Shown one piece after another: positions 6,479-27,922 of a stretch of 36,749 nucleotides of DNA. How positions within the stretch are numbered: position 1 is the stretch's first letter; each line of letters begins with the position of its first letter. The stretch comes from a virus (taxonomy: Duplodnaviria > Heunggongvirae > Uroviricota > Caudoviricetes): the IMG/VR virus record IMGVR_UViG_2579779084_000014; one strand, 5' to 3'. The position numbers were made by a program, and so were the translations under genes. The notes under the pieces are model-generated. The model worked only from the letters and a program-made list of their open reading frames with translations, ran no database searches and had not been told where the DNA came from.

Positions 6479-6482
6479 AAAA

Positions 6483-7912: not shown

Positions 7913-7952
7913 GCCGCCAGTCTGGCAGCATGGACAGGTCAGAATCAGGTGA

Positions 7953-7965
7953 GGGTGTTCAGCAC
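7953..7965. promoter_or_regulatory. dyad motif GTGCTGAACACCC (gene-strand sense), copy 1 of 3; upstream of the gp46-48/tail-fibre block
   Basis: In the 54-nt intergenic gap between the gp45-like stop and the gp46-like ATG. Confidence 0.35.
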
Positions 7966-8619
7966 TTAATTAACCGGCGTGTCAGACATGCCGTGTGGGG
8001 TCGGGTGTTTGTGCGTTCCGATTTTAATGCCATTAATGGTGACGTCAACGGAGGTAATCACACCACCCACATGGTTGATGTTGCCTTCAAAGGTGGCGGC
8101 ATATTTCTTGCCCCCACTGATGGCCATGCCACCACTGCCGGTGATTTTACCTTCCACTGTCAGCTTATCGCTGGCCGTCAGTAACGGTGTCGTGAATGCG
8201 GCGTTCTCCTCTGCCTCAACCTCATAGCGTTTGCATTTCACCCGGTAAACGTCACATTCGGTTTCAACAATCCGCCCGCGCTTCAGTACGATTTTCGCGC
8301 CTTCATCGGTATACAGGGCCACCTCGCCGGGTTTCAGTTCCGTCAGGCGATATGCGCCGTGCTCTGTGGCCACGATGACGGTATGGGAGGTATTACCGTT
8401 CAGCGGAACGGCAATACCCATAGAGCCGGGCGGCGGGGATGTGGTGAGGCCGTAATGCTGAAAATACTCCGCACCGTCCAGCTGCTCGCCTGCCAGCCCG
8501 TTCAGCTGGAGAAGCTGTACTTTGGTCGAACTGTCCACCGTACCGGTCACCACCCTGAATGCCTGGCGAACGGTGGCCAGTGCCTGCTGTATGCGCTGAT
8601 TAACCTTGTCCCACATCAT
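7966..8619 (-). CDS. baseplate spike/assembly protein (Mu gp45-like, gpV-like)
   Basis: 217 aa; gpV-like OB-fold plus beta-rich C-terminus pattern. Confidence 0.7.
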   Translation of the reverse strand: MMWDKVNQRIQQALATVRQAFRVVTGTVDSSTKVQLLQLNGLAGEQLDGAEYFQHYGLTTSPPPGSMGIAVPLNGNTSHTVIVATEHGAYRLTELKPGEVALYTDEGAKIVLKRGRIVETECDVYRVKCKRYEVEAEENAAFTTPLLTASDKLTVEGKITGSGGMAISGGKKYAATFEGNINHVGGVITSVDVTINGIKIGTHKHPTPHGMSDTPVN

Positions 8620-9827
8620 TTCTCCCAGACCTTAACAATGGCGACCTCTTTTTTCTGTTTGCCCCTGCGGTGATGGCGTTTCTTCTCACGCGGGAAGGCG
8701 TCAGGTATCCACACGCCGTCCTCCTTAAAGCGAAGCCGGGTTGTCTGCCCGTTCCGGCCTCCGCTGAACTCACGCCCCATCAGGAAAAAGATGGCATCAA
8801 TGCCGTGGAGTTCGCTGACAATCCGCACACGCTGGCCGGGCTGCCACAGGACACCGTCCGCCGTGCGATGGCCTGCAACCAGTGCAACGATATCCAGCCC
8901 CGACAGACGGGCATCACTCATCATTTTTTTTGCGCGCCAGTTCACCTGCTCCATGTTACTGGTGTCGCCCTGGGTGATTATCTGCGGGCGGTAATAATCC
9001 ACGGTGGGGTCGGTGGCCACGGCTTTCATGTTATGAATGCCTGTCTGACCACCACCTGCATTACCGCTGCCCTGCCCGGATAATGTGCGCACGCTGCCGT
9101 CCTCGTTCCAGATGTCCAGTGGCACCACGGCTACCTGTTTCTTGCTGTCTGCGCGGCGGGCGTGGCTCTGAGCCAGTACTGTCAGTTCGGAGAAACAGCC
9201 GTTAATGGACCTGGTATCGTCCAGCTCCATCACGTTGTTCCCGGTACCGTCCAGCTTCAGAATCAGCGTGTCCACCGGCGTGGTGGTGTAGTCAGGGCCA
9301 CCCACAACCAGCGTACCGTCAGGCTCAAACCACGGCCATAAGCCGCGACCGGCGGCAGCTTTAGCCAGTGCATCCCACGCACGCATCCCCGGCTCTATAA
9401 CGACCTTGTCATTACGTGACACACCAGACGCCTGAATACGGATGCGCTGTATCCCCAGTGGTCTGACTATCCTGTCGATGACCTCGTCCAGTGTCAGCTG
9501 ATTGGCGCTGAACACCGGCGCGGCACAGTCCACCAGAATGGCGGCATCATCACGCCCGGACAGGGTCAGCGCGCAGCTCTGACGGGATACACTGCGGCGC
9601 ACGCTGTCCACGCGACCACTAAGGACCGTCTCATCTCCCACCTGCAAACGGACTGGCACACCCCGGACGATATCCGCCGGGAACACCTTTTCAGGCAGTC
9701 CCAGCTGAAGCTGCCACCCGTCGGCTGCTTTCAGGAAATCGCTGTCAATACGATAACTGCTCCAGTCAGAATGCGATCTTCCGGCAATGACCAGGCTGAT
9801 TTTGTCGTCGTTATTTTGCATAGGCAT
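8616..9827 (-). CDS. baseplate hub / tail protein P (late control D-like, Mu gp44-like)
   Basis: 403 aa; Mu P-like, follows the N gene. Confidence 0.75.
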   Translation of the reverse strand: MPMQNNDDKISLVIAGRSHSDWSSYRIDSDFLKAADGWQLQLGLPEKVFPADIVRGVPVRLQVGDETVLSGRVDSVRRSVSRQSCALTLSGRDDAAILVDCAAPVFSANQLTLDEVIDRIVRPLGIQRIRIQASGVSRNDKVVIEPGMRAWDALAKAAAGRGLWPWFEPDGTLVVGGPDYTTTPVDTLILKLDGTGNNVMELDDTRSINGCFSELTVLAQSHARRADSKKQVAVVPLDIWNEDGSVRTLSGQGSGNAGGGQTGIHNMKAVATDPTVDYYRPQIITQGDTSNMEQVNWRAKKMMSDARLSGLDIVALVAGHRTADGVLWQPGQRVRIVSELHGIDAIFFLMGREFSGGRNGQTTRLRFKEDGVWIPDAFPREKKRHHRRGKQKKEVAIVKVWEK

Positions 9828-11160
9828 TAATCACCATCCCGGCGGTTATGTTGTTCGGGTCACGCAGCTGCGGGTTCAGACGTTGCAGCTCTGCCGCACG
9901 GCTGTAATCACCGTACCACTGCCACGCCAGCAACAGCAGGCAACCGTCCGCCTGCACCTGTTTCTGCGTCAGCGGTGGGCGGCGTGACAGAGTCAGCAGG
10001 CCGACATCCTGCACGGATGCCGCCACGTTCTTCATGCTCTGAATGATTTCCGGGTACATCAGCCCCAGCGGTGATGCGGTTTCGGTTATCCGTTCGCGTT
10101 CGCCTTCATAGCGTTCACGGAACAGCGTGATGGCTGCCTGTAAGCGGGTGCGCACATCCCCGACCAGTCGCCCGATATCCGCCGGTATAAGCTGCTCTGA
10201 CTGGGCCTCATCTGACAGTATCGCCGTCGCCACGCTGGCCAGCTCTGAGGCTGCCAGAACCGCATAAGCCGCTTTCACGTCGTGCACGTCTTCCACGGAC
10301 GCATCCGGCGGAAGTGCCACAGACGGCGTTTTATCACCGCTGACCAGTGCGACCGGCAGCGCGACCAGCTCATCCATATCTGCCATCACCTCATTCCAGC
10401 AGGTCATCACTGTCGCAGAACTGGCGACGTTGTCTTCCCCGGTCAGTCCGGTCGTGGTGGCGGAATCACTACGCGCCAGAACCGGCACCGCGTGCCCGAC
10501 ATCTGACGTGTGGATTTCCAGCCCCTCTGCCAGCCCGCCGATAAACTTTCCGGGTTCGCTGGTCAGTGACACAACATTTTCGACTGTGGAGAATGAATCA
10601 CTTTTGAACGTCAGCAGGGTATTTACCAGCGTGGCACGCACTGCCTGGATTTTTTTAATCACGCTGTTAATGGTCTTTAAAGGGGGCGTAACAGCGTCAA
10701 AAAATTCGCTTAACTGTGCCAGTAACTTATCCAGTTCTTCAAATAACTGCTGTGCAAACAGCTCTGGTAACGGGGTGCAGAACAACGCACTGCCGGTGCG
10801 GCTCTCCAGAAAGCTCATGTCGATGGTGCAGCTGTCCGGGCTTTCTGCGTCATGGCGAATGCTGTAGCCGGTCACAATCACCGACGGTACGGAGCCGTAA
10901 ACCGGGTGAATCAGCTCACCATCGCCGCCTTCGTCCAGGGCAGCGATCAGCTTTTCAAGTTTATATTCGTAATACTCCCCCCACAGGAACGCCGTCATGC
11001 GGAACGGTCGCGCCTTGCGTCCGAGGTCGTGCAAATCTGCCCCGTCAACAAACGGGTATTCATAGACCGCATGGTCGCGGCTGATTTGTTCATCCGTGTT
11101 CAGTACATCAAACTGCACGCCACGAAAGGAGGCGTTTTGCAGGTTTTCAGCCCAGCCCAT
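9811..11160 (-). CDS. DNA circularisation protein N (Mu N-like)
   Basis: 449 aa; N-terminal NASFRGVQF hallmark of the Mu N family. Confidence 0.75.
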   Translation of the reverse strand: MGWAENLQNASFRGVQFDVLNTDEQISRDHAVYEYPFVDGADLHDLGRKARPFRMTAFLWGEYYEYKLEKLIAALDEGGDGELIHPVYGSVPSVIVTGYSIRHDAESPDSCTIDMSFLESRTGSALFCTPLPELFAQQLFEELDKLLAQLSEFFDAVTPPLKTINSVIKKIQAVRATLVNTLLTFKSDSFSTVENVVSLTSEPGKFIGGLAEGLEIHTSDVGHAVPVLARSDSATTTGLTGEDNVASSATVMTCWNEVMADMDELVALPVALVSGDKTPSVALPPDASVEDVHDVKAAYAVLAASELASVATAILSDEAQSEQLIPADIGRLVGDVRTRLQAAITLFRERYEGERERITETASPLGLMYPEIIQSMKNVAASVQDVGLLTLSRRPPLTQKQVQADGCLLLLAWQWYGDYSRAAELQRLNPQLRDPNNITAGMVINAYAK

Positions 11161-13433
11161 CAGTAAGTTCCTCCCGTGCCTCTGTTACCGTCCTGAAGGT
11201 TGTATTTGTTCACTGCTTCCGCCACAATCTGACCATCGAGCACCAGTTGTGTGGTGAAATTAATGGGGCTGGCAGGTGGACCCCAGTGCGTGAGGTATCC
11301 CGGCTGGGTGATGCGTCCGGGTTGCGTTGATACTGATTCAGGCGTTGTGTTTCCGGCGGCTTTGTTGACCTGCGCCGGTGATGGCAGGGCATCAGCTGCG
11401 GCTTTTTTCCTGTCTTCCTCCCAGCGCCTCAACCACTCTTCGTTTTCGGTGGAGTAGCCTTCCCCAAACTGCCACCACGGCTGGTATTTTTTGCGGGCAG
11501 CATCGATGATTTCCTGGGGATATCGGGCGCGGATGCGCTTCCAGCGTTCCTCGCTTCCTTCGACGGCGGCGTCTTCTTCCGGGCTGGTTGCGGTGGCCAG
11601 TGCCGTAACGGTGCCACCGAAAGAAAGCAGGCTACCGGCAATGCCGGGGAATTTAAATCCTTTGCCTTTTTTGACCGTGTTTTCAATTACATCACCGACA
11701 ACCTCGCCAGCCTTGCCACCGGTTTTACCCCCGGTCAGGATTTTGATCCCGGCCCATGTCAGAGCCGCTGCGGTCATCGCTTCAATGGCGGTCGTGGCAC
11801 CCACCACTGCCGTGGTCAGTCCCGGAAACTTTTCACCCGCCCAGCTTATGGCATCGGCCACAGTACCGGACGCATCAGCCAGCTTTTTCATGCTGTCCAT
11901 TTGTGAAAATTCAAGCGTGTTTTTGGCCTGTTCGGTTTTAAAGTCATTGAGGCCGGATATGAATTTAAAATCCACATCACCCGCGCGCTGACCTTCCGGC
12001 AGGGTGCGCTGCTGATTAATCGCGTCTTCAACCTTTTTCCGGTATTCAGGGTTGTTACGGTAAGCCAGCAACGCTTTTAACGCCTGTTGGTCTGCAACCA
12101 GTTTCCCGACACCAAAGCCTTCAAGGAGTTTTGCCATCGAATCATAAACAGCTGTCTGCTCGCCTTTATCCCGGGCGGAGGCCAGTTTCTTTTGCAACTC
12201 CTGAAAGCGTTTATCGCTGGCAACGATTTTGTCTATCAGACTGGACAGCGCATCTATCGGATCAAGCCCATGTTCGCGCGCCTGAACCAGCGTGCCGGAA
12301 AAATCAATTCCTTTACCGTTGTAATCAATGCTCTTTGCCGCTGTTTCAATATCGTGGCTGGTCAGTTTAGCCAGCAGGTTAAACACGTTATTTCCGGCCT
12401 CATCACTGCTTCCCGCCGTGATGGCGGCAGCTTCATTCAGCGCCAGAATCTTGACAAAATCATCCTTGCCTCTCATCCCCGCAGCTGACGCTGACCCCAG
12501 TTGCGAAGATAACCAGCGGGCCATGTCGCTCAGTTCAAAGCTACCTTCTTTGCCCGCTGCAATTGCCATATTCAGAACGGTGGAAATATCTTCATCCCTG
12601 AATCCAAAGGTCTTTTTACCCTTAAGCATCACATTAGCCAGGTCTGTCGCTGATGCACCGGAAGCCGTGGCGTATTTCATCAGTTCAGGCAGCCACTTAC
12701 TGGCTGTTTCAAATGAAATACCGCCATCTTTCAGCAGGGCATCCAGCGTTTCGGCGGCGTCTTCTTTCGTGCCGCCACCCCAGGTCACCGCGTTACGGAT
12801 GCTGTTTTTCATCTGCTCAAGACCAGCCCTGCGCCCCTCCAGCCCGCTATCACTGAAGGCGGTATTGGCCATCATTGCCAGCTGGCGTTCGTAGCTCATC
12901 TGCTTTTTGACCGGCTGCGCCATAATGGCAGCACCTGCTGCGATACCAGCGCCTGTTGTCACGGCATTCCCGCCAAATGCAGCCGCACGGGCAAAACGCC
13001 CCGGTTCGGGGATAACAGGCGTTTTCGCCATCTTCATCTGTGCCTGAGTGACGCCATCCAGTTCACGCTTGAGTGCCCGGGCTTTTTCCCGGGTGGCCTG
13101 CATGGCGCGTTCCTGCTCCTGCGCAGATTCAAAACCGGCACGAGCCAGACGGTTATAACTGGCAACCGTCAGATAAATTTCACGCCGGATCTCACGCTCT
13201 GCACGAATACCGAGCGTTTCCCGGGCACGGGCGGCACGCTGTATCTCTTTTGCGGCCTTTTTCGTGCTGTTAACGCTTTCCTGTCCGGTACGCCTCTGCT
13301 CTGCGCCTGCCTTCCGTGTTGCCTTTGTTACATCTTCGGTGGCTTTGATAACCTGTTTTTGTCCCTTTTCCAGAACCTGCGAGGCTTCATCCTTCGCAGT
13401 CAGGGTCATGCCAACTTTGAAATTACCGGCCAT
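11160..13433 (-). CDS. tail tape measure protein
   Basis: 757 aa, Ala/Lys/Glu-rich helical composition, canonical position. Confidence 0.85.
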   Translation of the reverse strand: MAGNFKVGMTLTAKDEASQVLEKGQKQVIKATEDVTKATRKAGAEQRRTGQESVNSTKKAAKEIQRAARARETLGIRAEREIRREIYLTVASYNRLARAGFESAQEQERAMQATREKARALKRELDGVTQAQMKMAKTPVIPEPGRFARAAAFGGNAVTTGAGIAAGAAIMAQPVKKQMSYERQLAMMANTAFSDSGLEGRRAGLEQMKNSIRNAVTWGGGTKEDAAETLDALLKDGGISFETASKWLPELMKYATASGASATDLANVMLKGKKTFGFRDEDISTVLNMAIAAGKEGSFELSDMARWLSSQLGSASAAGMRGKDDFVKILALNEAAAITAGSSDEAGNNVFNLLAKLTSHDIETAAKSIDYNGKGIDFSGTLVQAREHGLDPIDALSSLIDKIVASDKRFQELQKKLASARDKGEQTAVYDSMAKLLEGFGVGKLVADQQALKALLAYRNNPEYRKKVEDAINQQRTLPEGQRAGDVDFKFISGLNDFKTEQAKNTLEFSQMDSMKKLADASGTVADAISWAGEKFPGLTTAVVGATTAIEAMTAAALTWAGIKILTGGKTGGKAGEVVGDVIENTVKKGKGFKFPGIAGSLLSFGGTVTALATATSPEEDAAVEGSEERWKRIRARYPQEIIDAARKKYQPWWQFGEGYSTENEEWLRRWEEDRKKAAADALPSPAQVNKAAGNTTPESVSTQPGRITQPGYLTHWGPPASPINFTTQLVLDGQIVAEAVNKYNLQDGNRGTGGTY

Positions 13434-13595
13434 TTTTCTGCTTACCTTTTCTGCGTTTCTTCCTGAGGGATTTAAATGACTGGCGGGTGGTCTGTGAGGT
13501 GTCCTTCCTTCCTGAGCCGCCGCCGCTCAGCCTGTCAACGGCAGCAAGCCAGCCGTCCAGCTCGGGACGGCTCATGGTCATGATTTGATCTTCGG

Positions 13596-13979
13596 TTATT
13601 CCGTAGCGCCCGAGGATAAGGACTGCGAGCCGGAGTCCGGCGAGCCGGGATTCCCGCCGTTCCGCTTTACCTTCAGGACGTTACGTGATGCCAGCAGAAT
13701 ATTAAAATCGTCCGGCGTCATGTTGTCGTGCAACAAATCCGCCGTCAGTTCTTCCTGCGGGATATCCCCCAGACGGACCAGCGTTGCCGCCATCACTGCA
13801 CAGCGGTAGTAATAATCCGCCGCGAAGCCGTCCACTGTCTGAAAGCGTTCTTCAGTTTCTTCCAGTGCCTGCCCGTTATCACGCATGACCGGCAGACGCA
13901 GCTCAAAGTTTTTATGAACGGTGCCGTTAAACACCACGCCATCAGACAGTTCACCGGTCTGTGTATTAATCAAAGTCAT
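13596..13979 (-). CDS. tail assembly chaperone
   Basis: 127 aa, acidic, directly upstream of the tape measure gene; the -1 frame stays open into the 160-nt stretch before the tape measure start. Confidence 0.55.
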   Translation of the reverse strand: MTLINTQTGELSDGVVFNGTVHKNFELRLPVMRDNGQALEETEERFQTVDGFAADYYYRCAVMAATLVRLGDIPQEELTADLLHDNMTPDDFNILLASRNVLKVKRNGGNPGSPDSGSQSLSSGATE

Positions 13980-14350
13980 CCTGTCACCTTCCTGAGTGCA
14001 GCCAGTTTGATATCAATTTTCGCTTCATTATCGACGGTGTATTTCTCACCCACTTCGGTTGTGAAGCAGTCCAGATAGGAGGTGCGCTTGCCGCTTTTAC
14101 TGAGCGGGTACAACGAGATTTTCACACCTTCAAGGTTTTCCCAGTCCGGCTCGTTGGTATCAGGGATTACCGCCGAAACGGACAATTCGTAGGTGCCAAT
14201 GCCCCGGGCAAAGCCTTTGGCTCTGCCGGTTTTGTTCATGGTCTTGACCAGTTTTCGCCCGGTGTTGATCTGAACATCAAGGTCGGTGATCTCGATTTCC
14301 TGGCTGTCCACCTCCAGCACAATCGAGCCAATGTATTCATGCAGAGACAT
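13976..14350 (-). CDS. tail tube protein (Mu M-like)
   Basis: 124 aa immediately after the sheath gene. Confidence 0.7.
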   Translation of the reverse strand: MSLHEYIGSIVLEVDSQEIEITDLDVQINTGRKLVKTMNKTGRAKGFARGIGTYELSVSAVIPDTNEPDWENLEGVKISLYPLSKSGKRTSYLDCFTTEVGEKYTVDNEAKIDIKLAALRKVTG

Positions 14351-14362
14351 TTATCAGGCTCC

Positions 14363-15784: not shown

Positions 15785-16019
15785 CGGAACCCACCTGTTT
15801 CTCTTTCTTCACCTTCGCTTTTACCTGCACGGCGTCCTGTTCAGCCGTCACGGTGGCTTCAGACTCATCCTTCACCAGAATCAGGTCACCGTCCTGAACG
15901 GCGCGCCGGTAATAAGCGGTGTTCTCAACGGTCACCGCTTCCGTAGTGATGTATTTCCGGGCGTTATCCTCCATCGGGAACTTCATCCCGGGAGCCGCCT
16001 TAACCTTCATTTTGTTCAT
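15777..16019 (-). CDS. small Mu gp38-like protein
   Basis: 80 aa; overlaps the sheath gene start as in Mu-like tail modules. Confidence 0.45.
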   Translation of the reverse strand: MNKMKVKAAPGMKFPMEDNARKYITTEAVTVENTAYYRRAVQDGDLILVKDESEATVTAEQDAVQVKAKVKKEKQVGSDE

Positions 16020-16596: not shown

Positions 16597-16649
16597 ATGC
16601 CCCAGACCACAGCGCAGACGCTCAACCAGCGCCCGTTCAATTTCAGTAA

Positions 16650-17081: not shown

Positions 17082-17084
17082 GGG

Positions 17085-17426: not shown

Positions 17427-17429
17427 GCA

Positions 17430-18744: not shown

Positions 18745-19869
18745 TTACTTTTCTCCTGCGTAACGGGCGATATCTTCTGGATCAACGCCCATCATTGAAC
18801 AAATGGCGATATCGATATCGACGTCATCGCCGGTTTTAATCTGCGCCGGGGCCGGTGACGGCGTTTGGGGTGGTTTGCCGCCCGTCTGGGTCTGACTGAG
18901 CGCAACAAGTTTCGGTGCGTTATCCAGCCAGGACTTAAAGCCGTTGATATCGCGGCTGGCGTAATCTTTCGCCCAGTCTTCCTGTGCCGGAAGCAGTCGC
19001 CCGTCAGACAGCGCCGCCTGAATCAGTGCCCCGGCTTCGGCCTCACCGGACTGTTGCGCCAGTGCGGCATAACGCCCCTGAAGTTCTTCGAAGGCAGCAA
19101 GGGAAATGTGTTTTGACGGGTCATAGGCACTGGCTGACAGGCTGGCGATTTGCTCATCTTTCTGATTCAGCAGGGCCAGCAGGCTGACGGATGCCGCCGC
19201 CGTTCCCTGACCGTTCGAAATCATGTCAACGACCTTTTGCAGCTCGTTTTTGATATCTTCCGCCGTTGAGGTAACCGGGAGGTTAAGCATCCAGCGCAGA
19301 CTGGACAGCAAATCGTTTAACAGTTCTTCATCCACTGTTGTGGTCTCCGTTTCAGTTGACAGACTCGCCAGACGGCTGGCCGCAGCCAGCATGACCGCGT
19401 CCATACCGTCCAGCGCCGGGGTATTGGTCAGTGCGGCGTGTAACAGTTCGATGACTTCGCCGCGCCGGTTGTATCCAAATACCGGGGAAATAAATTTGTA
19501 CTCTCCGGCGGCAATCATGGCCGCCGCGTTCTCCGTCCACTCCACACCGATGGCATACAGGCCCGAACCTTCACGCCATTCCACCTGGCTGAACCAGCCC
19601 GCCGCCGGGGCAGGCTTGCCGTTGTTTACGGCGCGCAGCGTCTGATGTTCGTAATCAATGACAAAAGGCGTGGTACGGGCTGCCACCTGTGCGACAAGCT
19701 GCGCGGCCAGTCCGGCAGTCAGCACCCATTTACCGCTTTCGACTTCATCGGTATACGGGCGACCATCCACCGCGCTGAACTCGCCTGCCGGAAACAGCTG
19801 GATTTCGCTGTGGGTTGCTTTAGTAATTTCGAGGCTTAACGCCGCAATGTTCATCTTCATGCGCGGCAT
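18745..19869 (-). CDS. head maturation protease / scaffold (Mu I-like)
   Basis: Mu I-like sequence; start moved to the first ATG downstream of the dyad motif (MPRMKMNIAAL); exact start uncertain. Confidence 0.75.
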   Translation of the reverse strand: MPRMKMNIAALSLEITKATHSEIQLFPAGEFSAVDGRPYTDEVESGKWVLTAGLAAQLVAQVAARTTPFVIDYEHQTLRAVNNGKPAPAAGWFSQVEWREGSGLYAIGVEWTENAAAMIAAGEYKFISPVFGYNRRGEVIELLHAALTNTPALDGMDAVMLAAASRLASLSTETETTTVDEELLNDLLSSLRWMLNLPVTSTAEDIKNELQKVVDMISNGQGTAAASVSLLALLNQKDEQIASLSASAYDPSKHISLAAFEELQGRYAALAQQSGEAEAGALIQAALSDGRLLPAQEDWAKDYASRDINGFKSWLDNAPKLVALSQTQTGGKPPQTPSPAPAQIKTGDDVDIDIAICSMMGVDPEDIARYAGEK

Positions 19870-19901
19870 GATGACGGAAGGGGAACACGGGGTACTGTGG
19901 A

Positions 19902-19916
19902 GGGTGTTCAGCACCC
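19902..19916. promoter_or_regulatory. dyad motif GGGTGCTGAACACCC (gene-strand sense), copy 2 of 3; candidate late promoter for the head operon
   Basis: Intergenic between the G-like and I-like genes; the track's 'start' of the I ORF is the GTG inside this motif. Confidence 0.4.
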
Positions 19917-19952
19917 TGCCATAACGGGAAAGGATAAAAGGGGAAATAAAAC

Positions 19953-19977
19953 CGTTTTTAAAACCCTTTTAAAAACG
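19953..19977. repeat. AT-rich palindrome CGTTTTTAAAA-CCC-TTTTAAAAACG in the G-I intergenic region
   Basis: 11-bp perfect inverted arms with a 3-bp spacer, read directly from the sequence. Confidence 0.5.
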
Positions 19978-20069
19978 ATTCTGGCGGCATTTATGGGGTG
20001 CGGTGCTGCAATGCCTCATCCGTGAGGCGTTTATGTCGTCAGAAGCGATTACAGCGCGCTTCTGGTCAT

Positions 20070-21784: not shown

Positions 21785-23372
21785 TCAGTCTCCCCCAGAT
21801 ATCCGCCACAAAGAACGCCTGTGTCAGCAACTGCCGCAGCGTGTCATCCGGCAGTTCCGGCCAGGCTTCCGCCAGTACGTTCATGGCCTCATCTGCATCA
21901 CGACCTTCCTGTATGGCCTGCACCAGAGGTGCCACCAGTTCGTTCATCCCCTGCGCAATGGCCTCTGCCGGAAGTTCTGCCCGGTCAATGGCGCGCTGTG
22001 CCGGGTCGTCCTCCCCGTTGTCCTGCTGACTGAGCACGGCAATATTCAGCCGTTCACGCAGCTGGCTGAGACCAGTCTGCACAGGGAGACGCTGAGCTAC
22101 CGGCACCAGTACCTCTTCGCCGTCTTTCGGGGTGGGAATACCGGTTTTTTGGCGTACCCACGACACCGGGATATCCTTCATCCCCACATTGTTAACCAGC
22201 ACGCTGACGGCTTCTGCCACACTCTTAATGTCGGCTTCCTGCTGCACATCAAACACCAGACGTGGCAGGCGACGCGGTGGGATATCCTGCCAGCCGTTGA
22301 GACTGGCCATCATCTGTATCAGACTACTGAACATGCCGGACAGCTGGCGAGCATCGGCGGTCAGAATGTCGTGCCGGACCTCGTTATGCACATTACCCAG
22401 CGCGTTGGTGGAGGATTTGCCGTCGGCCTGACTGGTCAGTGTACTGCCCAGGATCACTTTTGAGGTGGTACGCTCCGCCCATTCCACCATCGACATGAAC
22501 GCCTCCGGCCCGCCGGAGGCGGCCTCCTTGAATTCAATCTCGTTACCCTGAGGGAGTGCTGCCACCGCTTCATGGCCCAGATTGACCAGGGCTTCGAGAA
22601 TGTTGTCCCGGTCAGCATCACTGGTGCCCTGTGCATAGTAGGCAATGCGCGCCGGAAGACCGTAAATCTCCAGAAATTCCGCCATATCACGCAGCGCAAA
22701 GTTTTTAAACAGATACGGCCAGACCAGTACGCGGAACAGGCCGGATGAACCCAGGAACCCCGACCGGGCGTTGTAACGATGAACCAGCCAGCCGAACGGC
22801 CACAGCGCGGAACCGTCTTTACCATCTTCCCCACAGTTGCCGTCATCCAGCCGGAGTTCGTCATTGTGTTCCGGCAGGGTAATAAACCAGTTATGCGGTC
22901 GCAGCGTTACCGCATCCGGTAGCCACGTTTTGTCCACGAACGCCCAGCTGATTTCCTGACAGCTGAAACCGTAACCGACACTGCTCATCCCGTTGAGGAT
23001 GATGTCCTCCATATCCGGGATACCGTGCAGCCACTCATCCACGGCGGCGGCCAGCTCCTTTTCAGCCTTCGAGGCATTGCGGGGTGGCTCCACCGACCAG
23101 TCCAGCGTCAGCAACGCTTTTTTGCGCTTTTCCATCTCGGCGAACAGATGGCCGTCACGTTCTTCCATATCCGCAAACAGCATCGCCTGCGCCGGAAGAT
23201 AACCGCGTTCGGCTGCTTCCAGAATGCGCGGCAGTTTTCTGATGTTCAGACCACGCGACGGGTGGTCGGGATAAATGCGCAGCCGTTCCGCCACCCGGAC
23301 CGACTGCGTGGTTTTGAGTGCCTCACGTTTCAGCGGGCGTCCGTAAATATCAACAAGCTGTGCCATTACCAT
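21771..23372 (-). CDS. portal protein (Mu gp29-like)
   Basis: 533 aa, position after terminase, Mu gp29-like sequence character. Confidence 0.8.
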   Translation of the reverse strand: MVMAQLVDIYGRPLKREALKTTQSVRVAERLRIYPDHPSRGLNIRKLPRILEAAERGYLPAQAMLFADMEERDGHLFAEMEKRKKALLTLDWSVEPPRNASKAEKELAAAVDEWLHGIPDMEDIILNGMSSVGYGFSCQEISWAFVDKTWLPDAVTLRPHNWFITLPEHNDELRLDDGNCGEDGKDGSALWPFGWLVHRYNARSGFLGSSGLFRVLVWPYLFKNFALRDMAEFLEIYGLPARIAYYAQGTSDADRDNILEALVNLGHEAVAALPQGNEIEFKEAASGGPEAFMSMVEWAERTTSKVILGSTLTSQADGKSSTNALGNVHNEVRHDILTADARQLSGMFSSLIQMMASLNGWQDIPPRRLPRLVFDVQQEADIKSVAEAVSVLVNNVGMKDIPVSWVRQKTGIPTPKDGEEVLVPVAQRLPVQTGLSQLRERLNIAVLSQQDNGEDDPAQRAIDRAELPAEAIAQGMNELVAPLVQAIQEGRDADEAMNVLAEAWPELPDDTLRQLLTQAFFVADIWGRLNADS

Positions 23373-25006
23373 CCTCCTGAACCAAAACGCCCGCCACGGT
23401 CACGCCCGGTGCTGCGTGGGGTGTGTATCTGAAATTTTGCGCTGCGCGATACCGCCAGCGTCCACAGCATGTGCAGACAGTCCGGGCCATCATCGTGGTC
23501 GGCTTTGGGGTAGTGGCGCAGCTGGTCAATCAGCGTCTGATGTGTGTGGCTGATACGAATCAGGCCGTTGGCCATATGCGGCTGAAGGGATTCGATACGC
23601 AGCGCTTTATCCTCCAGCGGGATGACCGGCAGCGCCGGAACCGGCACACCCAGCGCCGCCGAACGCTCAACCAGCACGGTACGCAGAAACTCCTGAAACT
23701 GAACGGACTCAAACGACCAGCACAGGCAGTGATATTCCCGCTGATACTTAATCACGTCTTCGATAAGTTTATCTGGCAGACGCCGGCGGATATCGGCTTC
23801 AACCACATCCAGTATGCCGGTAAAACGGTTAAAGCCCCCCACGAGAATGGCCGACGGGTCGCGGTTTTTATTCTTCTTCCCGAGACTGGGGTCAACAGCG
23901 CCGTAGAACACCCATTCATCAAGACGGTTAACCCAGAACTTAATGCAGCCCGCAAACAGCGCATCTTCACCGCTGACCGGGTCGTTCTGGTATTCAGAAT
24001 CAAAGGTGTCGTGACCGTCACGGACACGGATTTTCATCAGCGCCAGCAGGGGACGCGCCGCCCATGACACCACCGACCCGGCGAGCATGTCGGCTTCGTT
24101 CTGCCGGTAAAGTGCCTCCGCTGCTTCCGGCTGTTTGTTGCGGATGAGTTCTTCCCACTCGTCCCACAGCTTCATGTTGGCAGGCCACTGAATAACGGCC
24201 TTAAAGCGGGCCGTTTTCCACATCGGATTATTCAGCGTGCGCGACAGTACGGAGTCGTAATGCAGGATGGTTCCGATATAAATAATATCGGTTTTACCGC
24301 CAGCCTCGCCCAGCGGCATCACGGTTTTGGTGAGCCAGTCATGCAGCTTGTCGCGCTGCTCCGGGTTACGCACCATCTCGTCGTTCTCGATATCGTCGAG
24401 GATAACCAGGTCAGGACGGTACGGGCCGTGGCGCAGACCACGCAGTTTTTTACCACTACCGGCAACGGTCACCTTGATATTGTTGGCCGTGACGATGGTC
24501 CCCATACGCCAGACGCGACCCTGCCCGCACACTTCCGGGAAATCGTTTTTTAAACGGGGGTTAAACTCCAGTTCAGCCTTGATGGCTTCCAGCATCGGAT
24601 AAGCCTGGTCGATACTGTCCATAATGATGACCGGGTAATGCTTAATGGCCCGGATAATGGTCCACAGGGTAAACAGCTGAGTCACCAGCGTGGATTTTGC
24701 TTCACCACGGGGCGCGGCGATGGCGTCGTTCTCCGGGTCCGGGCTTGCCACAACCTGTGGCAGACGGCTGAACAGGTATTTATGCAGCTCACTTTTTGCC
24801 GGGTTGCGGACGTAGTGCGGGAAATAATTTTCGACAAAATAATCGTAGCCCGTCACCGGGTCGCAGACTGCCGCCCGGCGGGCCTGTGTGGCCTGCGGGT
24901 TAACATCGAACCCCAGACATTCAGCCTCGATGGTCTGGCGGAGGTTGGCGATGTACTCCTGCAGGCTTCTCTGAAACTCTTTAATGGAAAGTTTACGTTT
25001 TGCCAC
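23366..25006 (-). CDS. terminase large subunit (Mu gp28-like)
   Basis: ATPase plus nuclease-sized protein directly upstream of the portal; start placed at a GTG with AGGTG SD just after the MTase stop (the track TTG start at 25063 would overlap the MTase by 56 nt); start uncertain. Confidence 0.75.
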   Translation of the reverse strand: MAKRKLSIKEFQRSLQEYIANLRQTIEAECLGFDVNPQATQARRAAVCDPVTGYDYFVENYFPHYVRNPAKSELHKYLFSRLPQVVASPDPENDAIAAPRGEAKSTLVTQLFTLWTIIRAIKHYPVIIMDSIDQAYPMLEAIKAELEFNPRLKNDFPEVCGQGRVWRMGTIVTANNIKVTVAGSGKKLRGLRHGPYRPDLVILDDIENDEMVRNPEQRDKLHDWLTKTVMPLGEAGGKTDIIYIGTILHYDSVLSRTLNNPMWKTARFKAVIQWPANMKLWDEWEELIRNKQPEAAEALYRQNEADMLAGSVVSWAARPLLALMKIRVRDGHDTFDSEYQNDPVSGEDALFAGCIKFWVNRLDEWVFYGAVDPSLGKKNKNRDPSAILVGGFNRFTGILDVVEADIRRRLPDKLIEDVIKYQREYHCLCWSFESVQFQEFLRTVLVERSAALGVPVPALPVIPLEDKALRIESLQPHMANGLIRISHTHQTLIDQLRHYPKADHDDGPDCLHMLWTLAVSRSAKFQIHTPRSTGRDRGGRFGSGGW

Positions 25007-25007
25007 G

Positions 25008-25748
25008 TCACACCTGCACTGCTTCTGTCTGGGCTTTTTCGATACGTGCGCAGGCGATATCAAAATACTGGTTAGTCATTTCAATGCCGGTAAACCGTCC
25101 GCCACGGGCAAGTACAGGGATGGCGGTAGTGCCGCTTCCCATAAACGGATCAAGGACGTGCGCATCCGGTGTCAGCGGTTTAACCAGCTCAGCCATCAGC
25201 TGAACCGGCTTTGCGGTCATGTGCAGTTTTTCGGACGGGACGACACGCTGCGTAATCACACCCGGGAACGGGCCACCGTGCGGGCATTTGTCGAGTTTTC
25301 CGTTGCTGCCCCAGACCACATACTCGGCCTGATGCCGAAAATAGCCAGTGTGTGGCGCACGGGAAGCCTGCGTTTTATCCCAGACAACCAGACCACGCCA
25401 CAGCACACCACCGGCCTGAAATGCATCTGTAAGCGCCGGTAGTTGTCGCCAGTCACTGAACACCATGAAATAACCGCCGGAATTCAGCCTGTGCAATGCA
25501 TGAGATATCCACATGGAACACCAGAACGCCCAGCTGCGCTGGTCGCGGTTATCGCCGGTGAACTCGGCATACTGGGTGTGACCGATATACTTGTCCGAAG
25601 GGGCCATGCTGCGGTCTGATTTGTGTGTACCACCACTGCTGTAAGGCGGGTCGGTAATGACGGCATCAAAACGTTCGGATAACGCCGGCAGCACATCAAG
25701 AACATCACCGCAATACAACGTTGCGTTACCAATAATCTGTTTTTGCAT
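25008..25748 (-). CDS. DNA methyltransferase, beta-class amino-MTase (N6-adenine or N4-cytosine)
   Basis: 246 aa; catalytic motif IV DPPY near the N-terminus (ITDPPYSSGG), AdoMet motif I FMGSGTT near the C-terminus. Confidence 0.8.
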   Translation of the reverse strand: MQKQIIGNATLYCGDVLDVLPALSERFDAVITDPPYSSGGTHKSDRSMAPSDKYIGHTQYAEFTGDNRDQRSWAFWCSMWISHALHRLNSGGYFMVFSDWRQLPALTDAFQAGGVLWRGLVVWDKTQASRAPHTGYFRHQAEYVVWGSNGKLDKCPHGGPFPGVITQRVVPSEKLHMTAKPVQLMAELVKPLTPDAHVLDPFMGSGTTAIPVLARGGRFTGIEMTNQYFDIACARIEKAQTEAVQV

Positions 25749-25794
25749 TACAAATCCCGAATATCAGACGACCCGGAAAACCGGGCCGCTGTGG

Positions 25795-26295
25795 TTAACT
25801 GAAATTATCCTCAAGCTCTTTAGCGAAGCCTTCGAGCACCTCAAGAAACGGGGCATACTGCGTCGGGTGACGCTCCTTGATGAACGCGCCGAGCCGCTGC
25901 ACCACTTCCAGTGCCGTGGCGAGCCGGTCGGTTTCCGGCAGGATTTTTTTACTGCTGGCCACCGCCTTACTGAGACTGTCGGACAGACTCGCCAGCAGTT
26001 CGACGGACTCCTGCGGCGGGATGTCCGGGTTCTGGTTCAGCCGTTCAAGCGTCGTCTGACACTTCACCACCAGACTGATAAGCACGGTGCGGGCGACACT
26101 TTCCAGCCCGTCACCGGCGAGCGCGTGCGCGGCCCGCAGCTTGTCCCAGTCGTCGCCGTTCTTCATCGCCTGCGTTTTCCAGCGCCGCGCGGTGTCGTGC
26201 GGCACGGCGTACTTCATGGCGACGATATCCAGCGGAAGCTGGTCAAAGATGTACCCGTTACGGACTTTGTCCCTGATATCCTGTGACCACGCCAT
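25795..26295 (-). CDS. Mu gp27-like protein (proposed small terminase / DNA-binding)
   Basis: 166 aa; position immediately upstream of the large terminase module as in Mu; family similarity by recollection. Confidence 0.55.
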   Translation of the reverse strand: MAWSQDIRDKVRNGYIFDQLPLDIVAMKYAVPHDTARRWKTQAMKNGDDWDKLRAAHALAGDGLESVARTVLISLVVKCQTTLERLNQNPDIPPQESVELLASLSDSLSKAVASSKKILPETDRLATALEVVQRLGAFIKERHPTQYAPFLEVLEGFAKELEDNFS

Positions 26296-26501
26296 TAAGT
26301 GTCCTTCTGAGCCTGTTCAATCCTGCGCTGAACTTCGTCGGGATTTTCAAGAACAAATACGTTTTTCCCGGTATCCAGTTCAATGACCGTGCCATCATGT
26401 GTACCGTACTGACGGTAAAAATGGGTGATTCGTTCAGCGAGCACCATGACAGCGCCAGCACCTCCTGAACCTGTGTATTCTGTAAATCTGATAATGCTCA
26501 C
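26295..26501 (-). CDS. hypothetical small protein (68 aa)
   Basis: Co-directional ORF; its end overlaps the start of the next gene (ATGA-type junction). Confidence 0.35.
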   Translation of the reverse strand: MSIIRFTEYTGSGGAGAVMVLAERITHFYRQYGTHDGTVIELDTGKNVFVLENPDEVQRRIEQAQKDT

Positions 26502-26521
26502 TGTGTCAGACCTTCAAAAAA

Positions 26522-26704
26522 TCAGTTCTGCGAACACTGCCGGATACCGTCAATAATCCGGCAGACCTGCGCCGCCGCGTCAAACAGCTGGCCCGCTCTG
26601 TTAATGTCTGAGCATCCCACCGGAAGCAACATCATCAGAAACAGGGCCAGAACACAGCGCGCGGCTTTACGTGGCGTTCTGTGGGGCCAGCGACTTCTGT
26701 TCAT
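26522..26704 (-). CDS. putative lipoprotein (possible o-spanin)
   Basis: 60 aa; basic N-terminus, hydrophobic LALFLMMLLPVGC with Cys after the hydrophobic core; lies just downstream of the endolysin. Confidence 0.4.
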   Translation of the reverse strand: MNRSRWPHRTPRKAARCVLALFLMMLLPVGCSDINRAGQLFDAAAQVCRIIDGIRQCSQN

Positions 26705-26717
26705 AACCCGTCCCGCA

Positions 26718-27095
26718 TCAGCGTTTTAACTGGAAATGAGGCCCGTCTTTCAGCGTTTTCCAGTCTCCGCCCCATTCGATGGCGACACCCAGCTCTGCGG
26801 CAGCCTGTTTAAAGGCACGGGCGATTTTTTCGTATAACGGCCAGTCCCATGAAATAGTGCTACCAACGTAAGCCACGACATCAACGGCATCGCCAGTAAG
26901 GTGACGGCTGTTCATGGTCTGGCTCTTGCCTTCAGCGACAAGTTGTTTCTGACGTTCTTTCGTGCGTAAACCTTCGGTAATACCAAAATCGACGTCCGAC
27001 AACGCCAGCGCACGGCGTACAACTGCCACCAGTTGTGGCTTTACGTCAGCCAGATTTTTCTCGCTACGTTGACTGAAACGGAATTTTCCCGACAT
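26718..27095 (-). CDS. endolysin, peptidase M15-type (L-alanyl-D-glutamate peptidase-like)
   Basis: 126 aa from internal ATG with GGAGGTG SD; metal-ligand motifs SRHLTGDAVD and DGPHFQL typical of M15 endolysins. Confidence 0.75.
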   Translation of the reverse strand: MSGKFRFSQRSEKNLADVKPQLVAVVRRALALSDVDFGITEGLRTKERQKQLVAEGKSQTMNSRHLTGDAVDVVAYVGSTISWDWPLYEKIARAFKQAAAELGVAIEWGGDWKTLKDGPHFQLKR

Positions 27096-27097
27096 AT

Positions 27098-27376
27098 TCA
27101 CCTCCGCAATAACGAAAGGATTTTTGACAAATTCCCGTGCGCCCACACGATAAGCGCACAGAAAACCAGATTCAGCGCCACAACCAGCCAGCTGGATTGC
27201 GTGTATGTACCGGACAGCCAGCGGAACGGGATGATGACGTAGCCGAGCATCAGCCAGTACGCCAGCCAGGTAATCATCGGTTTGTGCGCCGCACCGTGGC
27301 GGCGATACACAAACAACCCCAGAACAATGGTGAGACACAGCCAGACGTTCACGATACCGGCAAGGCTACTTTCCAT
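27098..27376 (-). CDS. small membrane protein of the lysis cassette (holin/antiholin-like)
   Basis: Start set at ATG with GGAGGGGG SD; three hydrophobic segments; stop 2 nt before the endolysin ATG. Confidence 0.5.
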   Translation of the reverse strand: MESSLAGIVNVWLCLTIVLGLFVYRRHGAAHKPMITWLAYWLMLGYVIIPFRWLSGTYTQSSWLVVALNLVFCALIVWAHGNLSKILSLLRR

Positions 27377-27758
27377 TTCCACCCCCTCCGCCGCGCAGTC
27401 TGGAAAACAGGCCGAACAGCGATGAAATTTCCTGTTGATAAAGAAAGGTCAGTATCTTGATGGATAACGCCGAGACACCGACCGCACACAATGCATCGAG
27501 CGGCTTGTCGTTGTAGTGGGTCAGCCACTGCATCAGTGACGCAGCCACGCCAGCCCCCAGAACGCCAACCACAAATGCGACGAGCAGGTGGATGGCCATT
27601 CGCCAGACCGGGATTTCTTTCTGCTGCGTGACAACAAAAAGCGCCCCGGCAAACGCGCCCACCACGACCCCGAAATCGGTATTGGTGAGAAGACCAAACA
27701 CACTGGCACCACCGATGGTGACTGCCACAGCTCCGCCGCCTGATAAGGGTTCAGACAT
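27366..27758 (-). CDS. holin-like membrane protein (lysis cassette)
   Basis: Start set at the internal ATG with AGGAGA SD; several hydrophobic segments (VAVTIGGASVFGLL, FGVVVGAFAGALFVV, IHLLVAFVVGVLGAGVAASL). Confidence 0.5.
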   Translation of the reverse strand: MSEPLSGGGAVAVTIGGASVFGLLTNTDFGVVVGAFAGALFVVTQQKEIPVWRMAIHLLVAFVVGVLGAGVAASLMQWLTHYNDKPLDALCAVGVSALSIKILTFLYQQEISSLFGLFSRLRGGGGGNGK

Positions 27759-27903
27759 GAGTTTCTCCTGTAAATCTGAGCCACTGACGGCCCGTAAATA
27801 ACACCCTGTCAAAGGCACAGAAGCCTTTTGCAGGGCGCTATCCCTTAAGGTGCCTTGTGGTCTGAGTGGACAGGGTAAACGGTCTGGTGTGGTGGGTACT
27901 GCT

Positions 27904-27922
27904 GGGGGTGTTCAGCACCCCC
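27904..27922. promoter_or_regulatory. dyad motif GGGGGTGCTGAACACCCCC (gene-strand sense), copy 3 of 3; candidate late-promoter activator site upstream of the lysis cassette
   Basis: Intergenic; shares GGGTGCTGAACACCC plus flanking CAGTACCC with the copy at 19902-19916. Confidence 0.4.

Follow-up and report, generated by a model that had tools for sequence, protein, structure and literature searches.

Candidate Mor/C-type activator sites at three late promoters of an E. coli Mu-like prophage and a covarying hairpin over the gp46 start codon

The window, which is the whole 36,749-nucleotide stretch of DNA analyzed here, comes from an E. coli Mu-like prophage, and gene coordinates were taken from the RefSeq prophage that is 100% identical to it. 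A short element recurs in three intergenic gaps. Site 1 lies in a 187-nt gap that separates a 95-aa ORF from the holin gene (ATG 27758), site 2 in one of 209 nt that separates G from the protease I gene (ATG 19860, with the motif 41 nt before it), and site 3 in one of 53 nt that separates gp45 from gp46 (ATG 7912, with the motif 40 nt before it), where it overlaps the gp45 stop codon TAA (7966-7968). The sites head the lysis, protease/head, and gp46/baseplate blocks, respectively, and this placement in the gaps ahead of holin, protease I, and gp46, at the start of late operons, is that of a Mor/C-dependent promoter.

The sequence GGGTGCTGAACACCC is found exactly at 19902-19916 and 27906-27920, both on the minus (gene) strand. 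The third copy, AAGTGCTGAACACCC (7953-7967, also on the minus, gene strand), matches GGGTGCTGAACACCC at 13 of 15 positions. The site 1 copy extends to GGGGGTGCTGAACACCCCC over 27904-27922, the span assigned to it in a first-pass annotation of the sequence, and the downstream sequence described as common to the first two copies is present as CAGTACCC, 4 nt past the 15-mer at site 1 (27894-27901) and site 2 (19890-19897). Seven matches to GGGTGCTGAACACCC with three or fewer mismatches were counted, and the two exact sites, scored on both strands, account for four of them; dinucleotide shuffles gave a mean of 1.4 and reached seven in 0 of 100. A weight matrix built solely from relatives with a Mor identity of 65% or less scored 29.9, 29.0, and 29.8 at sites 1, 2, and 3, compared to 8.0 at the next best position on either strand of the window and a maximum of 17.1 over 20 shuffles. 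This whole-window, two-strand count, which the first-pass annotation had called for, returned exactly three matrix sites, all intergenic, and the same three in the whole prophage with its host flanks. The early control region of the prophage and the other late-region gaps of at least 40 nt (46, 53, 56, and 439 nt) contain no matrix site. Related loci totaling 2.18 Mb gave 144 gene-strand matches and none on the opposite strand. The motif search and the matrix scan confirm that one element occurs three times in intergenic positions that head late gene blocks.

The predicted promoter features are as follows.

27894..27918, minus strand: predicted activator site of late promoter 1 (Plys-like); C of CTGAA at 27915; 16-bp dyad GCTGAACACCCCCAGC at 27916-27901
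27872..27877, minus strand: predicted -10 of promoter 1, TACCCT, 32 nt past CTGAAC
19890..19914, minus strand: predicted activator site of late promoter 2 (PI-like); C of CTGAA at 19911; 16-bp element GCTGAACACCCTCCAC at 19912-19897
19868..19873, minus strand: predicted -10 of promoter 2, CATCAT, followed after 7 nt by the protease ATG 19860; start site predicted
7941..7965, minus strand: predicted activator site of late promoter 3 (before gp46); C of CTGAA at 7962; 16-bp element GCTGAACACCCTCACC at 7963-7948
7919..7924, minus strand: predicted -10 of promoter 3, CAGACT, 32 nt past CTGAAC as in promoters 1 and 2, followed after 6 nt by the gp46 ATG 7912

The conserved block, about 25 bp long, runs from -3 to +21 when counted from the C of CTGAA. 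Relatives retain nGCTGA-N6(C-rich)-TCAnC together with approximately seven downstream bases, and the family consensus of the dyad is GCTGA-ACCCCC-TCAGC. The downstream flank reads CAGTACC in the clade of the window, and CAGTACCC is this clade's version of the conserved downstream flank of the operator. Complementarity between the two halves was found in 40/42 cases at pair 1:12, 42/42 at pair 2:11, and 34/42 at pair 3:10, where positions 10 and 11 were part of the site selection. When sites were chosen only by the anchor [GA]CTGAA[CG] and a -10-like hexamer, the unselected TCA occupied +10 to +12 in 61 of 118 (expected, 1.6%). The right half-sites of the window (CCAGC, TCCAC, and TCACC) match at three to four of the five positions, and this degeneracy makes the dyad weaker here than in relatives. 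The arrangement is an imperfect 16-bp dyad with 5-bp inverted repeats separated by a G/C-rich hexanucleotide. Its center lies 4.5 bp downstream of the center of the GGGTG/CACCC dyad around CTGAA that was originally proposed. That symmetry is not the conserved one; its left arm is unconserved and its right arm is broken in close relatives (CTGAACTCCCC) without compensation. GGGTG/CACCC is a by-product of the clade's spacer (ACACCC) and left flank and is not the recognized symmetry.

A -10-like hexamer begins 23 bp from the end of the dyad at all three sites and in all relatives. With all non-redundant gene-strand occurrences of GCTGAAC as the anchor and no other selection, nAnnnT is found at +38 (32 nt past CTGAAC) in 28%, versus approximately 5% at other offsets or on the opposite strand. 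Candidate -10 sequences in relatives are TACACT, TATGCT, and CACAAT; most of the hexamers match TATAAT poorly, and a sigma-70 consensus scan detected a full promoter at none of the three sites. The -35 position is filled by the conserved flank CAGTAC, leaving a -10 hexamer and no -35 element. A dyad center at -43.5 presupposes that the hexamer spans -12 to -7 relative to a predicted, standard start site. By this placement, promoter 1 would start at approximately 27865 ± 2 and give a leader of approximately 107 nt to the holin ATG.

The candidate activator is encoded by the prophage itself, just ahead of the lysis genes.

28261..28728, minus strand: mor-like gene (155 aa), proposed activator and the sole Mor/C-family gene in the prophage

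The protein matches the Pfam Mor family (PF08765) with 28.3 bits against a cut-off of 24.9, and RefSeq names it a 'Mor transcription activator family protein'. A family profile matches the Mu C structure 9l0x (E = 9e-4) over the β-strand, the helix-turn-helix, and the C-terminal LF motif. Alignment with Mu C and Mu Mor shows that the LGG..YIPR β-strand and the helix-turn-helix are kept in the mor-like protein, which is only distantly related to both (19-24% identity).

Mor and C sites are 16-bp elements with 5-bp inverted repeats and a G/C-rich hexanucleotide spacer (PMC4390567, PMC2582627). They are centered at -43.5 in promoters that have a -10 and lack a -35, and the adjacent downstream bases are also required (PMC4390567, PMC2582627). 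A 26-bp footprint is cited in a 2025 preprint, and the conserved block of the prophage is close to this size. The prophage resembles Mu in its Mor/C-family gene just upstream of the lysis genes, its imperfect dyad and spacer, a dyad position that would correspond to -43.5 when counted from the -10 hexamer, the -10 without a -35, the conserved bases directly downstream of the dyad, and the separate promoters before the lysis block and before gene I, past the G-I gap. In contrast to Mu, the site sequence is unrelated: Mu C sites are TTAT...ATAA-like, and the matrix finds no site in Mu. The prophage has one Mor/C protein and Mu has two, which implies a two-step cascade instead of the three-step cascade of Mu. 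The third promoter precedes gp46 in the prophage and P (gp44) in Mu, where gp45 and gp46 overlap and leave no counterpart to the 53-nt gap. No equivalent of Pmom was seen in the prophage. The ATG located 6 to 7 nt past the -10 at two promoters and the hairpin across the third also set the prophage apart from Mu.

Conservation of the element at these three syntenic positions extends across genera to relatives of only approximately 35 to 45% protein identity, while the flanking intergenic sequence diverges; this is the comparison of homologous intergenic regions that had been suggested as a check. A syntenic site 1 match is present downstream of mor in every relative with a Mor identity of at least approximately 41% whose sequence extends far enough. 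Twenty non-redundant relatives retain site 2 ahead of the protease I gene, and site 3 is found at an identical position, approximately 400 nt upstream of gp47, once per tail region (gp47 identity, 46-100%). The site 1 and site 2 loci were gathered by anchoring on Mor, so the constant presence of Mor at them is partly circular. The operator sequence tracks Mor divergence, and in diverged lineages the half-sites change together at the same three positions. Both are altered in relative L068 (GCTGA/TCAGC to GACGA/TCGTC), and in Haemophilus phage SuMu (NC_019455) TGAA-N4-TTCA becomes GGAA-N4-TTCC with the 25-nt distance to the -10 unchanged. A close relative (L038) has a perfect palindrome with 10-bp arms, GGTACTGCTG-N8-CAGCAGTACC, about the same center. 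SuMu and Klebsiella phage ST405-OXA48phi1.1 (MK388859), both sequenced Mu-like phages of this lineage, share the three-promoter layout (before lysis, I, and gp46) and the -10 spacing; the Klebsiella phage has its sites at 9270, 18063, and 29750 and uses CCCACTGAAGCCCnTCAAC. Neither record carries annotated regulatory features, the mor ORF of MK388859 is unannotated, and a literature search found no paper describing the motif.

The three copies are most probably the activator-binding sites of three late promoters, recognized by the prophage's own Mor/C-family protein, and a probability of about 0.8 is assigned to this reading. The first-pass annotation had put the element forward as a candidate operator that replaces the -35 element and is bound by the product of 28261-28728, and this proposal draws support from synteny, strand bias, the fixed -10 spacing, the tracking of the Mor lineage, and the published geometry. 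A Mor/C-type late promoter site is the kind of element expected for a Mu-like prophage. The single Mor/C-family protein would bind the dyad centered at -43.5 and bring in the sigma-70 RNA polymerase of the host, in the manner of Mu Mor at Pm and of Mu C at Plys, PI, PP, and Pmom. The lysis-to-G and protease-head-tail operons would thereby be switched on, together with the gp46/baseplate-wedge and fiber genes.

A promoter-linked site for a protein other than Mor, such as the 95-aa ORF, a host factor, or another phage protein, is an unlikely alternative. The 95-aa ORF (27946-28233) has no family assignment, and its position next to mor is conserved in the 83% and 65% relatives. In Xenorhabdus, Photorhabdus, and Morganella relatives, however, the mor match ends 58 to 72 nt before the start of site 1, too short an interval to accommodate this ORF. 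A host factor would leave the lineage-specific half-site changes within the Enterobacterales unexplained, and the covariation of operator sequence with Mor and the exact match of site size, symmetry, spacer composition, and position to the Mor/C paradigm also count against another binder. The TGAAC of the motif resembles the GGAAC core of ECF -35 elements, which would make CTGAAC the -35 of an alternative ('GAAC'-type) sigma factor. This explanation is very improbable: no sigma factor gene is annotated anywhere in the prophage, the conserved -10-like hexamer lies 32 nt past CTGAAC and not 16 to 17 nt, and the two-fold symmetric element changes in both halves together in L068 and SuMu, which a -35 would not do. 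A chance repeat or a non-functional remnant, for example duplicated intergenic DNA, is scarcely credible. The small copy number is all that favors it, and it is opposed by the 0 of 100 shuffles that reach the observed count, matrix scores of 29 to 30 against a shuffle maximum of 17, and conservation at three syntenic positions across genera within diverging flanks.

The first-pass annotation had also offered an RNA-level role, in which a GGGUG-CUGAA-CACCC stem-loop in a 5' leader or polycistronic RNA would act as a processing, stability, or antitermination signal. Site 1 does fold at -21.0 kcal/mol (z = -3.9) and site 2 at -12.5 kcal/mol (z = -2.3), but site 3 has no fold (-1.3 kcal/mol, z = +1.0). 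The stem pairs in 19% of cells among site 3 relatives, with one double-change pair, which is no better than shuffled and slid controls; at sites 1 and 2, pairs -2:6, -4:8, and -5:9 are mostly non-complementary. The left arm is unconserved, and close relatives alter the right arm (CTGAACTCCCC, CTGAACCCCCC) without compensation. RNAalifold places no structure over the motif, and Rfam gives no match. Pairing maintained by compensatory changes, the mark of a cis-acting RNA stem-loop, was not found for the motif across relatives, and transcripts beginning at the predicted start sites would not include the motif, which precedes them. Since the stem of the motif is unconserved, an RNA role for the motif is rejected as highly improbable.

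The short distances between the -10 and the start codon predict leaderless mRNAs at the protease and gp46 promoters, which is a new feature. The protease ATG 19860 lies 7 nt past the -10 and has no Shine-Dalgarno sequence, so its mRNA is predicted to be leaderless or near-leaderless; the spacing is 6 to 7 nt in 20/20 non-redundant relatives. At gp46, where 6 nt separate the -10 from the ATG, transcription is predicted to begin at the A of the start codon. A second element overlaps this promoter.

7909..7933, minus strand: covarying hairpin CCAUGCUGCC-AGACU-GGCGGCAUGG; the right arm holds the gp46 AUG (7912-7910)

The hairpin has a folding energy of -26.2 kcal/mol (z = -5.8); its left arm precedes the predicted start site, and the -10 hexamer forms its loop. 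Across 25 relatives, 92.8% of cells are paired (slid controls, 28-48%) and 5 of the 10 pairs have double changes. Nine of these 10 pairs are also predicted by RNAalifold, which finds no further structure in the alignment. Non-Watson-Crick cells comprise 21 G-T versus 5 A-C. The hairpin is also present in Klebsiella phage ST405-OXA48phi1.1, where the start codon is GTG and the left arm carries the matching CCAC; no obvious hairpin was seen by eye at the SuMu gp46 site. A compensated stem that includes the start codon is consistent with a start-codon-sequestering hairpin on read-through RNA, the placement of the 5' arm upstream of the transcript following from the predicted start. This covarying RNA hairpin is new and unexpected, and by the same start site it would hide the ATG in read-through transcripts only.

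Davis, Simons, and Kleckner reportedly described 'fold-back inhibition' of read-through transcripts for IS10/IS50 in 1985. In these elements the upstream arm of the inverted repeat precedes the element's own start site, and the hairpin that conceals the start codon can arise only in RNA initiated outside the element. The gp46 hairpin may work by a similar fold-back on read-through RNA, a functional analogy that implies no homology. Unlike the IS10/IS50 transposase gene, gp46 is served by an internal promoter of a phage late operon; the -10 hexamer makes up the hairpin loop, and the transcript that escapes the hairpin is predicted to have no leader. A transcript-dependent translation gate at the gp46 promoter is put forward tentatively, at somewhat less than even odds. 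The Mor-dependent internal promoter would yield a leaderless gp46 mRNA beginning at the AUG, as the protease I promoter may also do for its gene, and read-through from the upstream head-tail operon would carry a hairpin that locks the same AUG, its arms being the bases that flank the promoter's own -10 hexamer. If this is true, the gp46 element would be the phage equivalent of fold-back inhibition in IS10, conserved across the enterobacterial-type relatives sampled (25 non-redundant sequences, gp47 identity 46-100%), with SuMu apparently lacking it, and the internal promoter alone would set the expression of the translationally coupled baseplate-wedge and fiber genes.

The 15-mer GGGTGCTGAACACCC recurs in the window as the first-pass annotation had noticed, with exact copies at 27906-27920 and 19902-19916 and a 13/15 match at 7953-7967, all three in gene sense. 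The copies are intergenic, located in gaps of 187, 209, and 53 nt before the holin (site 1), protease I (site 2), and gp46 (site 3) genes, respectively. Their number in a whole-window count was reached by 0 of 100 shuffles and is thus not a product of chance. A literature search returned no description of the motif or of leaderless Mu-type late mRNAs. Bases 3112-36749 are 99.4 to 99.7% identical to the Mu-like prophage inserted between uspA and dtpB in E. coli RIVM_C036569 (NZ_CP086627), and the minus strand carries all of its phage genes.

Gene order of the prophage
Early part, minus strand: transposase A and B; early genes; GemA; the Mor-family gene mor at 28261-28728; a 95-aa ORF; then the late genes
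Late genes, first part, minus strand: holins, endolysin, DUF1804, methyltransferase, terminase, portal, F, G
Late genes after G, minus strand: protease I, head genes, sheath, tube, tape measure, N, P, gp45, gp46, gp47, gp48, fibres

Window positions 1-3111 do not align to the NZ_CP086627 prophage locus, where dtpB stands. Additional phage-like ORFs, one of them for an HP1 ORF34-like baseplate protein, are encoded there on the minus strand, so the source strain either differs in its right-hand junction or has a phage remnant next to the prophage. The gp48/YmfQ-like gene (5476-5914 and 5522-6514, minus strand) is called a truncated pseudogene in the RefSeq annotation of the 99.7%-identical locus, with the result that a gap of 439 nt in front of the tail-fibre gene is unannotated.

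Of 5,426 complete E. coli genomes, at least 55 carry the prophage, EPEC E2348/69 and STEC strains among them. Relatives in E. coli are either at least 95% identical or have only the lysis genes in common and are therefore too close for covariation analysis. Megablast of 10 kb of the window against the phage collection gave no match and hence no close DNA relative, so protein anchors were used instead. Relatives were gathered through Mor homologues of 37 to 83% identity from species-representative genomes, Logan/NCBI assemblies, and IMG/VR contigs, and the tail region was sampled through gp47-anchored loci. Prophages with the same Mor subfamily were found in Salmonella, Klebsiella, Morganella, Xenorhabdus, Photorhabdus, and Pasteurellaceae.

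Alignment with these relatives separates what is conserved from what is local to the clade. The exact 15-mer hardly occurs in distant Mor loci and as such is not conserved, whereas the block nGCTGAAC-CCnnTCAnC-nGC is present in the same gaps of distant relatives. The symmetry within this block is GCTGA-N6-TCAGC, which differs from the GGGTG/CACCC dyad around CTGAA initially proposed as the recognized element; several viral contigs as well as Trabulsiella and Buttiauxella have it in perfect form. The right half-site is degenerate in the window (CCAGC, TCCAC, and TCACC at sites 1, 2, and 3), and the dyad spacer is C-rich, reading ACCCCC or ACCCTC and, in the window, ACACCC. The GGGTG arm of the originally proposed dyad is replaced by GATGC, CACCT, TACC, TAAGT, and others in relatives, and its right arm varies even in the E. 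coli clade (CTGAACTCCCC, CTGAACCCCCC) without the left arm changing to compensate. Folding of this dyad into an RNA stem-loop, suggested as an alternative role for the motif, is rejected: only 19% of cells are paired at site-3 relatives, no better than shuffled or slid controls, most sequences at sites 1 and 2 lack complementarity at three of the five pairs, RNAalifold predicts no structure over it, and an Rfam search of the window matched no known RNA family. The CAGTACCC sequence reported downstream of the first two copies is present at offsets +14 to +21 from the C of CTGAA and is the clade's version of a conserved flank with the family consensus C-c-G-C-t-c-C. The 7/8 inverted repeat GGGTGCTG-N11-CAGTACCC at sites 1 and 2 is centered 1.5 bp off the family dyad, is missing from site 3, and is not general; it is treated as flank sequence of the clade.

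A weight matrix trained exclusively on relatives whose Mor is at most 65% identical detects exactly three sites in the window with scores of 29.9, 29.0, and 29.8, compared to 8.0 for the next best position and a shuffle maximum of 17.1. The same three sites, and no others, are found when the complete prophage is scanned with ~14 kb of host flanks, and the early control region is free of sites. Across 2.18 Mb of related loci, 144 hits above a score of 20 lie on the gene strand and 0 on the other strand; the scan of phage Mu returned no site. Mor-anchored loci that are long enough and have matrix-detected sites contain one downstream of mor and another in front of the protease gene, and gp47-anchored loci contain one directly before gp46, ~400 nt upstream of gp47, at the same position over gp47 identities of 46 to 100%. 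Loci with the most diverged Mor proteins have sites below the matrix threshold, as expected if their operators diverged. In Klebsiella phage ST405-OXA48phi1.1 (MK388859, locus L153) the gene-strand sites, CCCACTGAAGCCCnTCAAC, number exactly three and precede the lysozyme, I, and gp46 genes. This phage also encodes a mor homologue at 8343-8738 that lacks annotation in GenBank and whose tblastn identity to the Mor of the window is 41%.

A -10-like hexamer lies exactly 32 nt past CTGAAC in every case.

Elements of the proposed late promoters
-10-like hexamers, window: TACCCT, CATCAT, CAGACT
-10-like hexamers, relatives: TACACT, TATGCT, TACGCT, CACAAT, CATCAT
19860-19873, minus strand: CATCAT, 7 nt, ATG (19860) of protease I
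7910-7924, minus strand: CAGACT, 6 nt, ATG (7912) of gp46
7933-7909, minus strand: hairpin CCAUGCUGCC-AGACU-GGCGGCAUGG formed by the bases flanking the gp46 -10 hexamer; the hexamer is the loop, and the right (3') arm holds the gp46 AUG

Two checks of this spacing were designed without selection on the feature under test. With GCTGAAC alone as the anchor, 28% of the 160 non-redundant occurrences on the gene strand have nAnnnT at offset +38; for every other offset, and for the opposite strand, the figure is ~5%. With [GA]CTGAA[CG] plus that nAnnnT hexamer as the anchor, 61 of 118 cases have TCA at +10 to +12. Assigning the hexamer to -12 to -7 would place the 16-bp dyad at -51 to -36, centered at -43.5. 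None of the three promoters has a -35 hexamer, and CTGAAC as a sigma-70 or ECF -35 element is rejected because of its spacing and symmetry. The Mu promoters activated by Mor and C likewise have a -10 and lack a -35 element and also require the adjacent downstream bases, an architecture that the predicted geometry of the window's promoters would share (PMC4390567, PMC2582627). Counting the spacing by hand on Mu Plys leaves the -10 assignment ambiguous, and the -43.5 value for Mu is taken from the published statement. At ~25 bp, the conserved block is near the footprint of 26 bp given in a 2025 preprint, which describes binding as tetrameric. A sigma-70-like TTGACG-16-TAAAAT match (10/12) inside gp45 at 8021-8048 (minus strand), ~60 nt upstream of site 3, is probably due to chance because the region has fewer such matches than its shuffles.

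The operator and its candidate activator change together. The Mor-like protein scores over the Pfam cut-off, the Mor family profile matches the Mu C structure (E = 9e-4), and the protein has in common with Mu C and Mor the β-strand LGG..YIPR, the HTH, and the C-terminal Q..LF, features that identify it by sequence as a distant member of the Mor/C family. A related locus (L068) with a Mor 36 to 38% identical to the window's has GACGA-N6-TCGTC, a mirror-image change in both half-sites. The Mu-like Haemophilus phage SuMu, whose Mor is 33 to 35% identical, has GGAA-N4-TTCC at the same three positions where the window's family has TGAA-N4-TTCA, and its dyad-to--10 distance is the same 25 nt. In a close relative (L038) the palindrome GGTACTGCTG-N8-CAGCAGTACC, whose 10-bp arms match perfectly, has the same center. 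Mirror-image changes on a fixed center are what a symmetric oligomeric DNA-binding protein would predict. The earlier proposal of a Mor/C-type operator at the late promoters is supported by every computational test available; binding, start sites, and activator dependence are predictions from sequence.

Only one Mor/C gene is annotated in the prophage, and the neighboring 95-aa ORF (27946-28233, minus strand) matched no family in a Pfam search. From these observations we infer a one-activator cascade, which suggests a simpler arrangement than the Mor-then-C succession of Mu. The ORF lies between mor and promoter 1, is kept in the 83% and 65% relatives, and is missing at that position in more distant ones; site 1 starts 58 to 72 nt past the end of the mor match in several relatives, showing that the ORF is not required for the motif.

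Two intrinsic terminators bracket mor.

Terminators around mor
28758-28817, minus strand: after gemA, AGCCCCTGC-CTT-GCAGGGGCT followed by T6
28262-28291, minus strand: overlapping the last codons of mor, AGCCCCACC..GGTGGGGCT followed by T5

The gene has its own near-consensus promoter, TGTACA-16-TATAAT with a GATC inside, which is kept in the 83%, 65%, and 54% Mor relatives. In relatives from Xenorhabdus, Photorhabdus, and Morganella (L004:9912, L006, L009, L011, and related loci), mor itself is preceded at a distance of ~90 nt by an additional, weaker Mor-type site, CCACTGAACCCCTTCAAC followed after 32 nt by AATACT, and a terminator-like hairpin comes after this site in the mor leader. These sequences hint at positive autoregulation with attenuation in those phages; nothing like the extra site is found upstream of mor in the window. 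The G-I gap contains an A/T-tract element, CGTTTTTAAAAGGGTTTTAAAAACGGTTTTATTTCC, ~40 to 65 nt upstream of promoter 2 (19941-19980, core palindrome 19953-19977, minus strand), and this element is conserved as far as Pasteurellaceae. The central strong gyrase site of Mu is annotated in the same gap (PMC10052514), and the element may be its equivalent or a promoter UP or bending element.

The predicted leader of the lysis promoter is an ordinary one of ~107 nt with AGGAGA at its end. All 20 non-redundant relatives have the protease ATG 6 to 7 nt past the -10 hexamer, which leaves no room for a Shine-Dalgarno sequence, and the gp46 promoter is arranged likewise. The protease I and gp46 mRNAs would consequently begin at the AUG or within 1 nt of it and are predicted to be leaderless.

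The hairpin around the gp46 -10 hexamer has a folding energy of -26.2 kcal/mol (z = -5.8). In 25 non-redundant relatives 92.8% of its cells are paired, compared to 28 to 48% in slid controls, with double changes in 5 of 10 pairs, and compensatory changes maintain it even where gp47 identity falls to 46%. In the 76-column alignment, the sole structure that RNAalifold finds includes 9 of the 10 pairs. In Klebsiella phage ST405-OXA48phi1.1 the gp46 start is GTG and the left arm has CCAC in place of CCAU. The non-Watson-Crick cells comprise 21 G-T and 5 A-C, a bias that favors an RNA read in gene sense over a palindrome in DNA. At the protease promoter nothing beyond a short TCATGC/GCATGA stem was seen, with -12.5 kcal/mol (z = -2.6), and this in the CATCAT subclade; 20 non-redundant protease-gene sites read by eye have no consistent stem comparable to the gp46 hairpin.

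The left arm of the gp46 hairpin is upstream of the predicted start site, meaning that folding should be possible only in RNA arriving from upstream, and promoter 3 is the only one of the three without a terminator-like hairpin upstream. Read-through transcripts from the head-tail operon would have the gp46 AUG locked in the hairpin, and transcripts from promoter 3 would be unlocked and leaderless. The coupled genes downstream would also be held down because gp47 overlaps the gp46 stop. The proposed action of the gp46 hairpin would resemble the fold-back inhibition of IS10. It may alternatively be an RNase III processing site or a DNA palindrome bound by a protein.

The new element is a candidate late-promoter operator of this Mor subfamily that belongs to the known class of Mor/C-type sites; the leaderless geometry and the hairpin are more unusual. 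The analysis supplies, all from sequence, an operator and a promoter map for an uncharacterized Mor subfamily, and the operator element is directly usable for annotating Mu-like prophages. Structures of Mor/C activators were recently solved, and Mor variants with their natural half-sites (GCTGA, GACGA, GGAA) are a ready set to study DNA recognition by these activators. Should the leaderless geometry and the gp46 hairpin be confirmed, they would reveal how a phage uses translation to set its ratio of baseplate to head-tail proteins.
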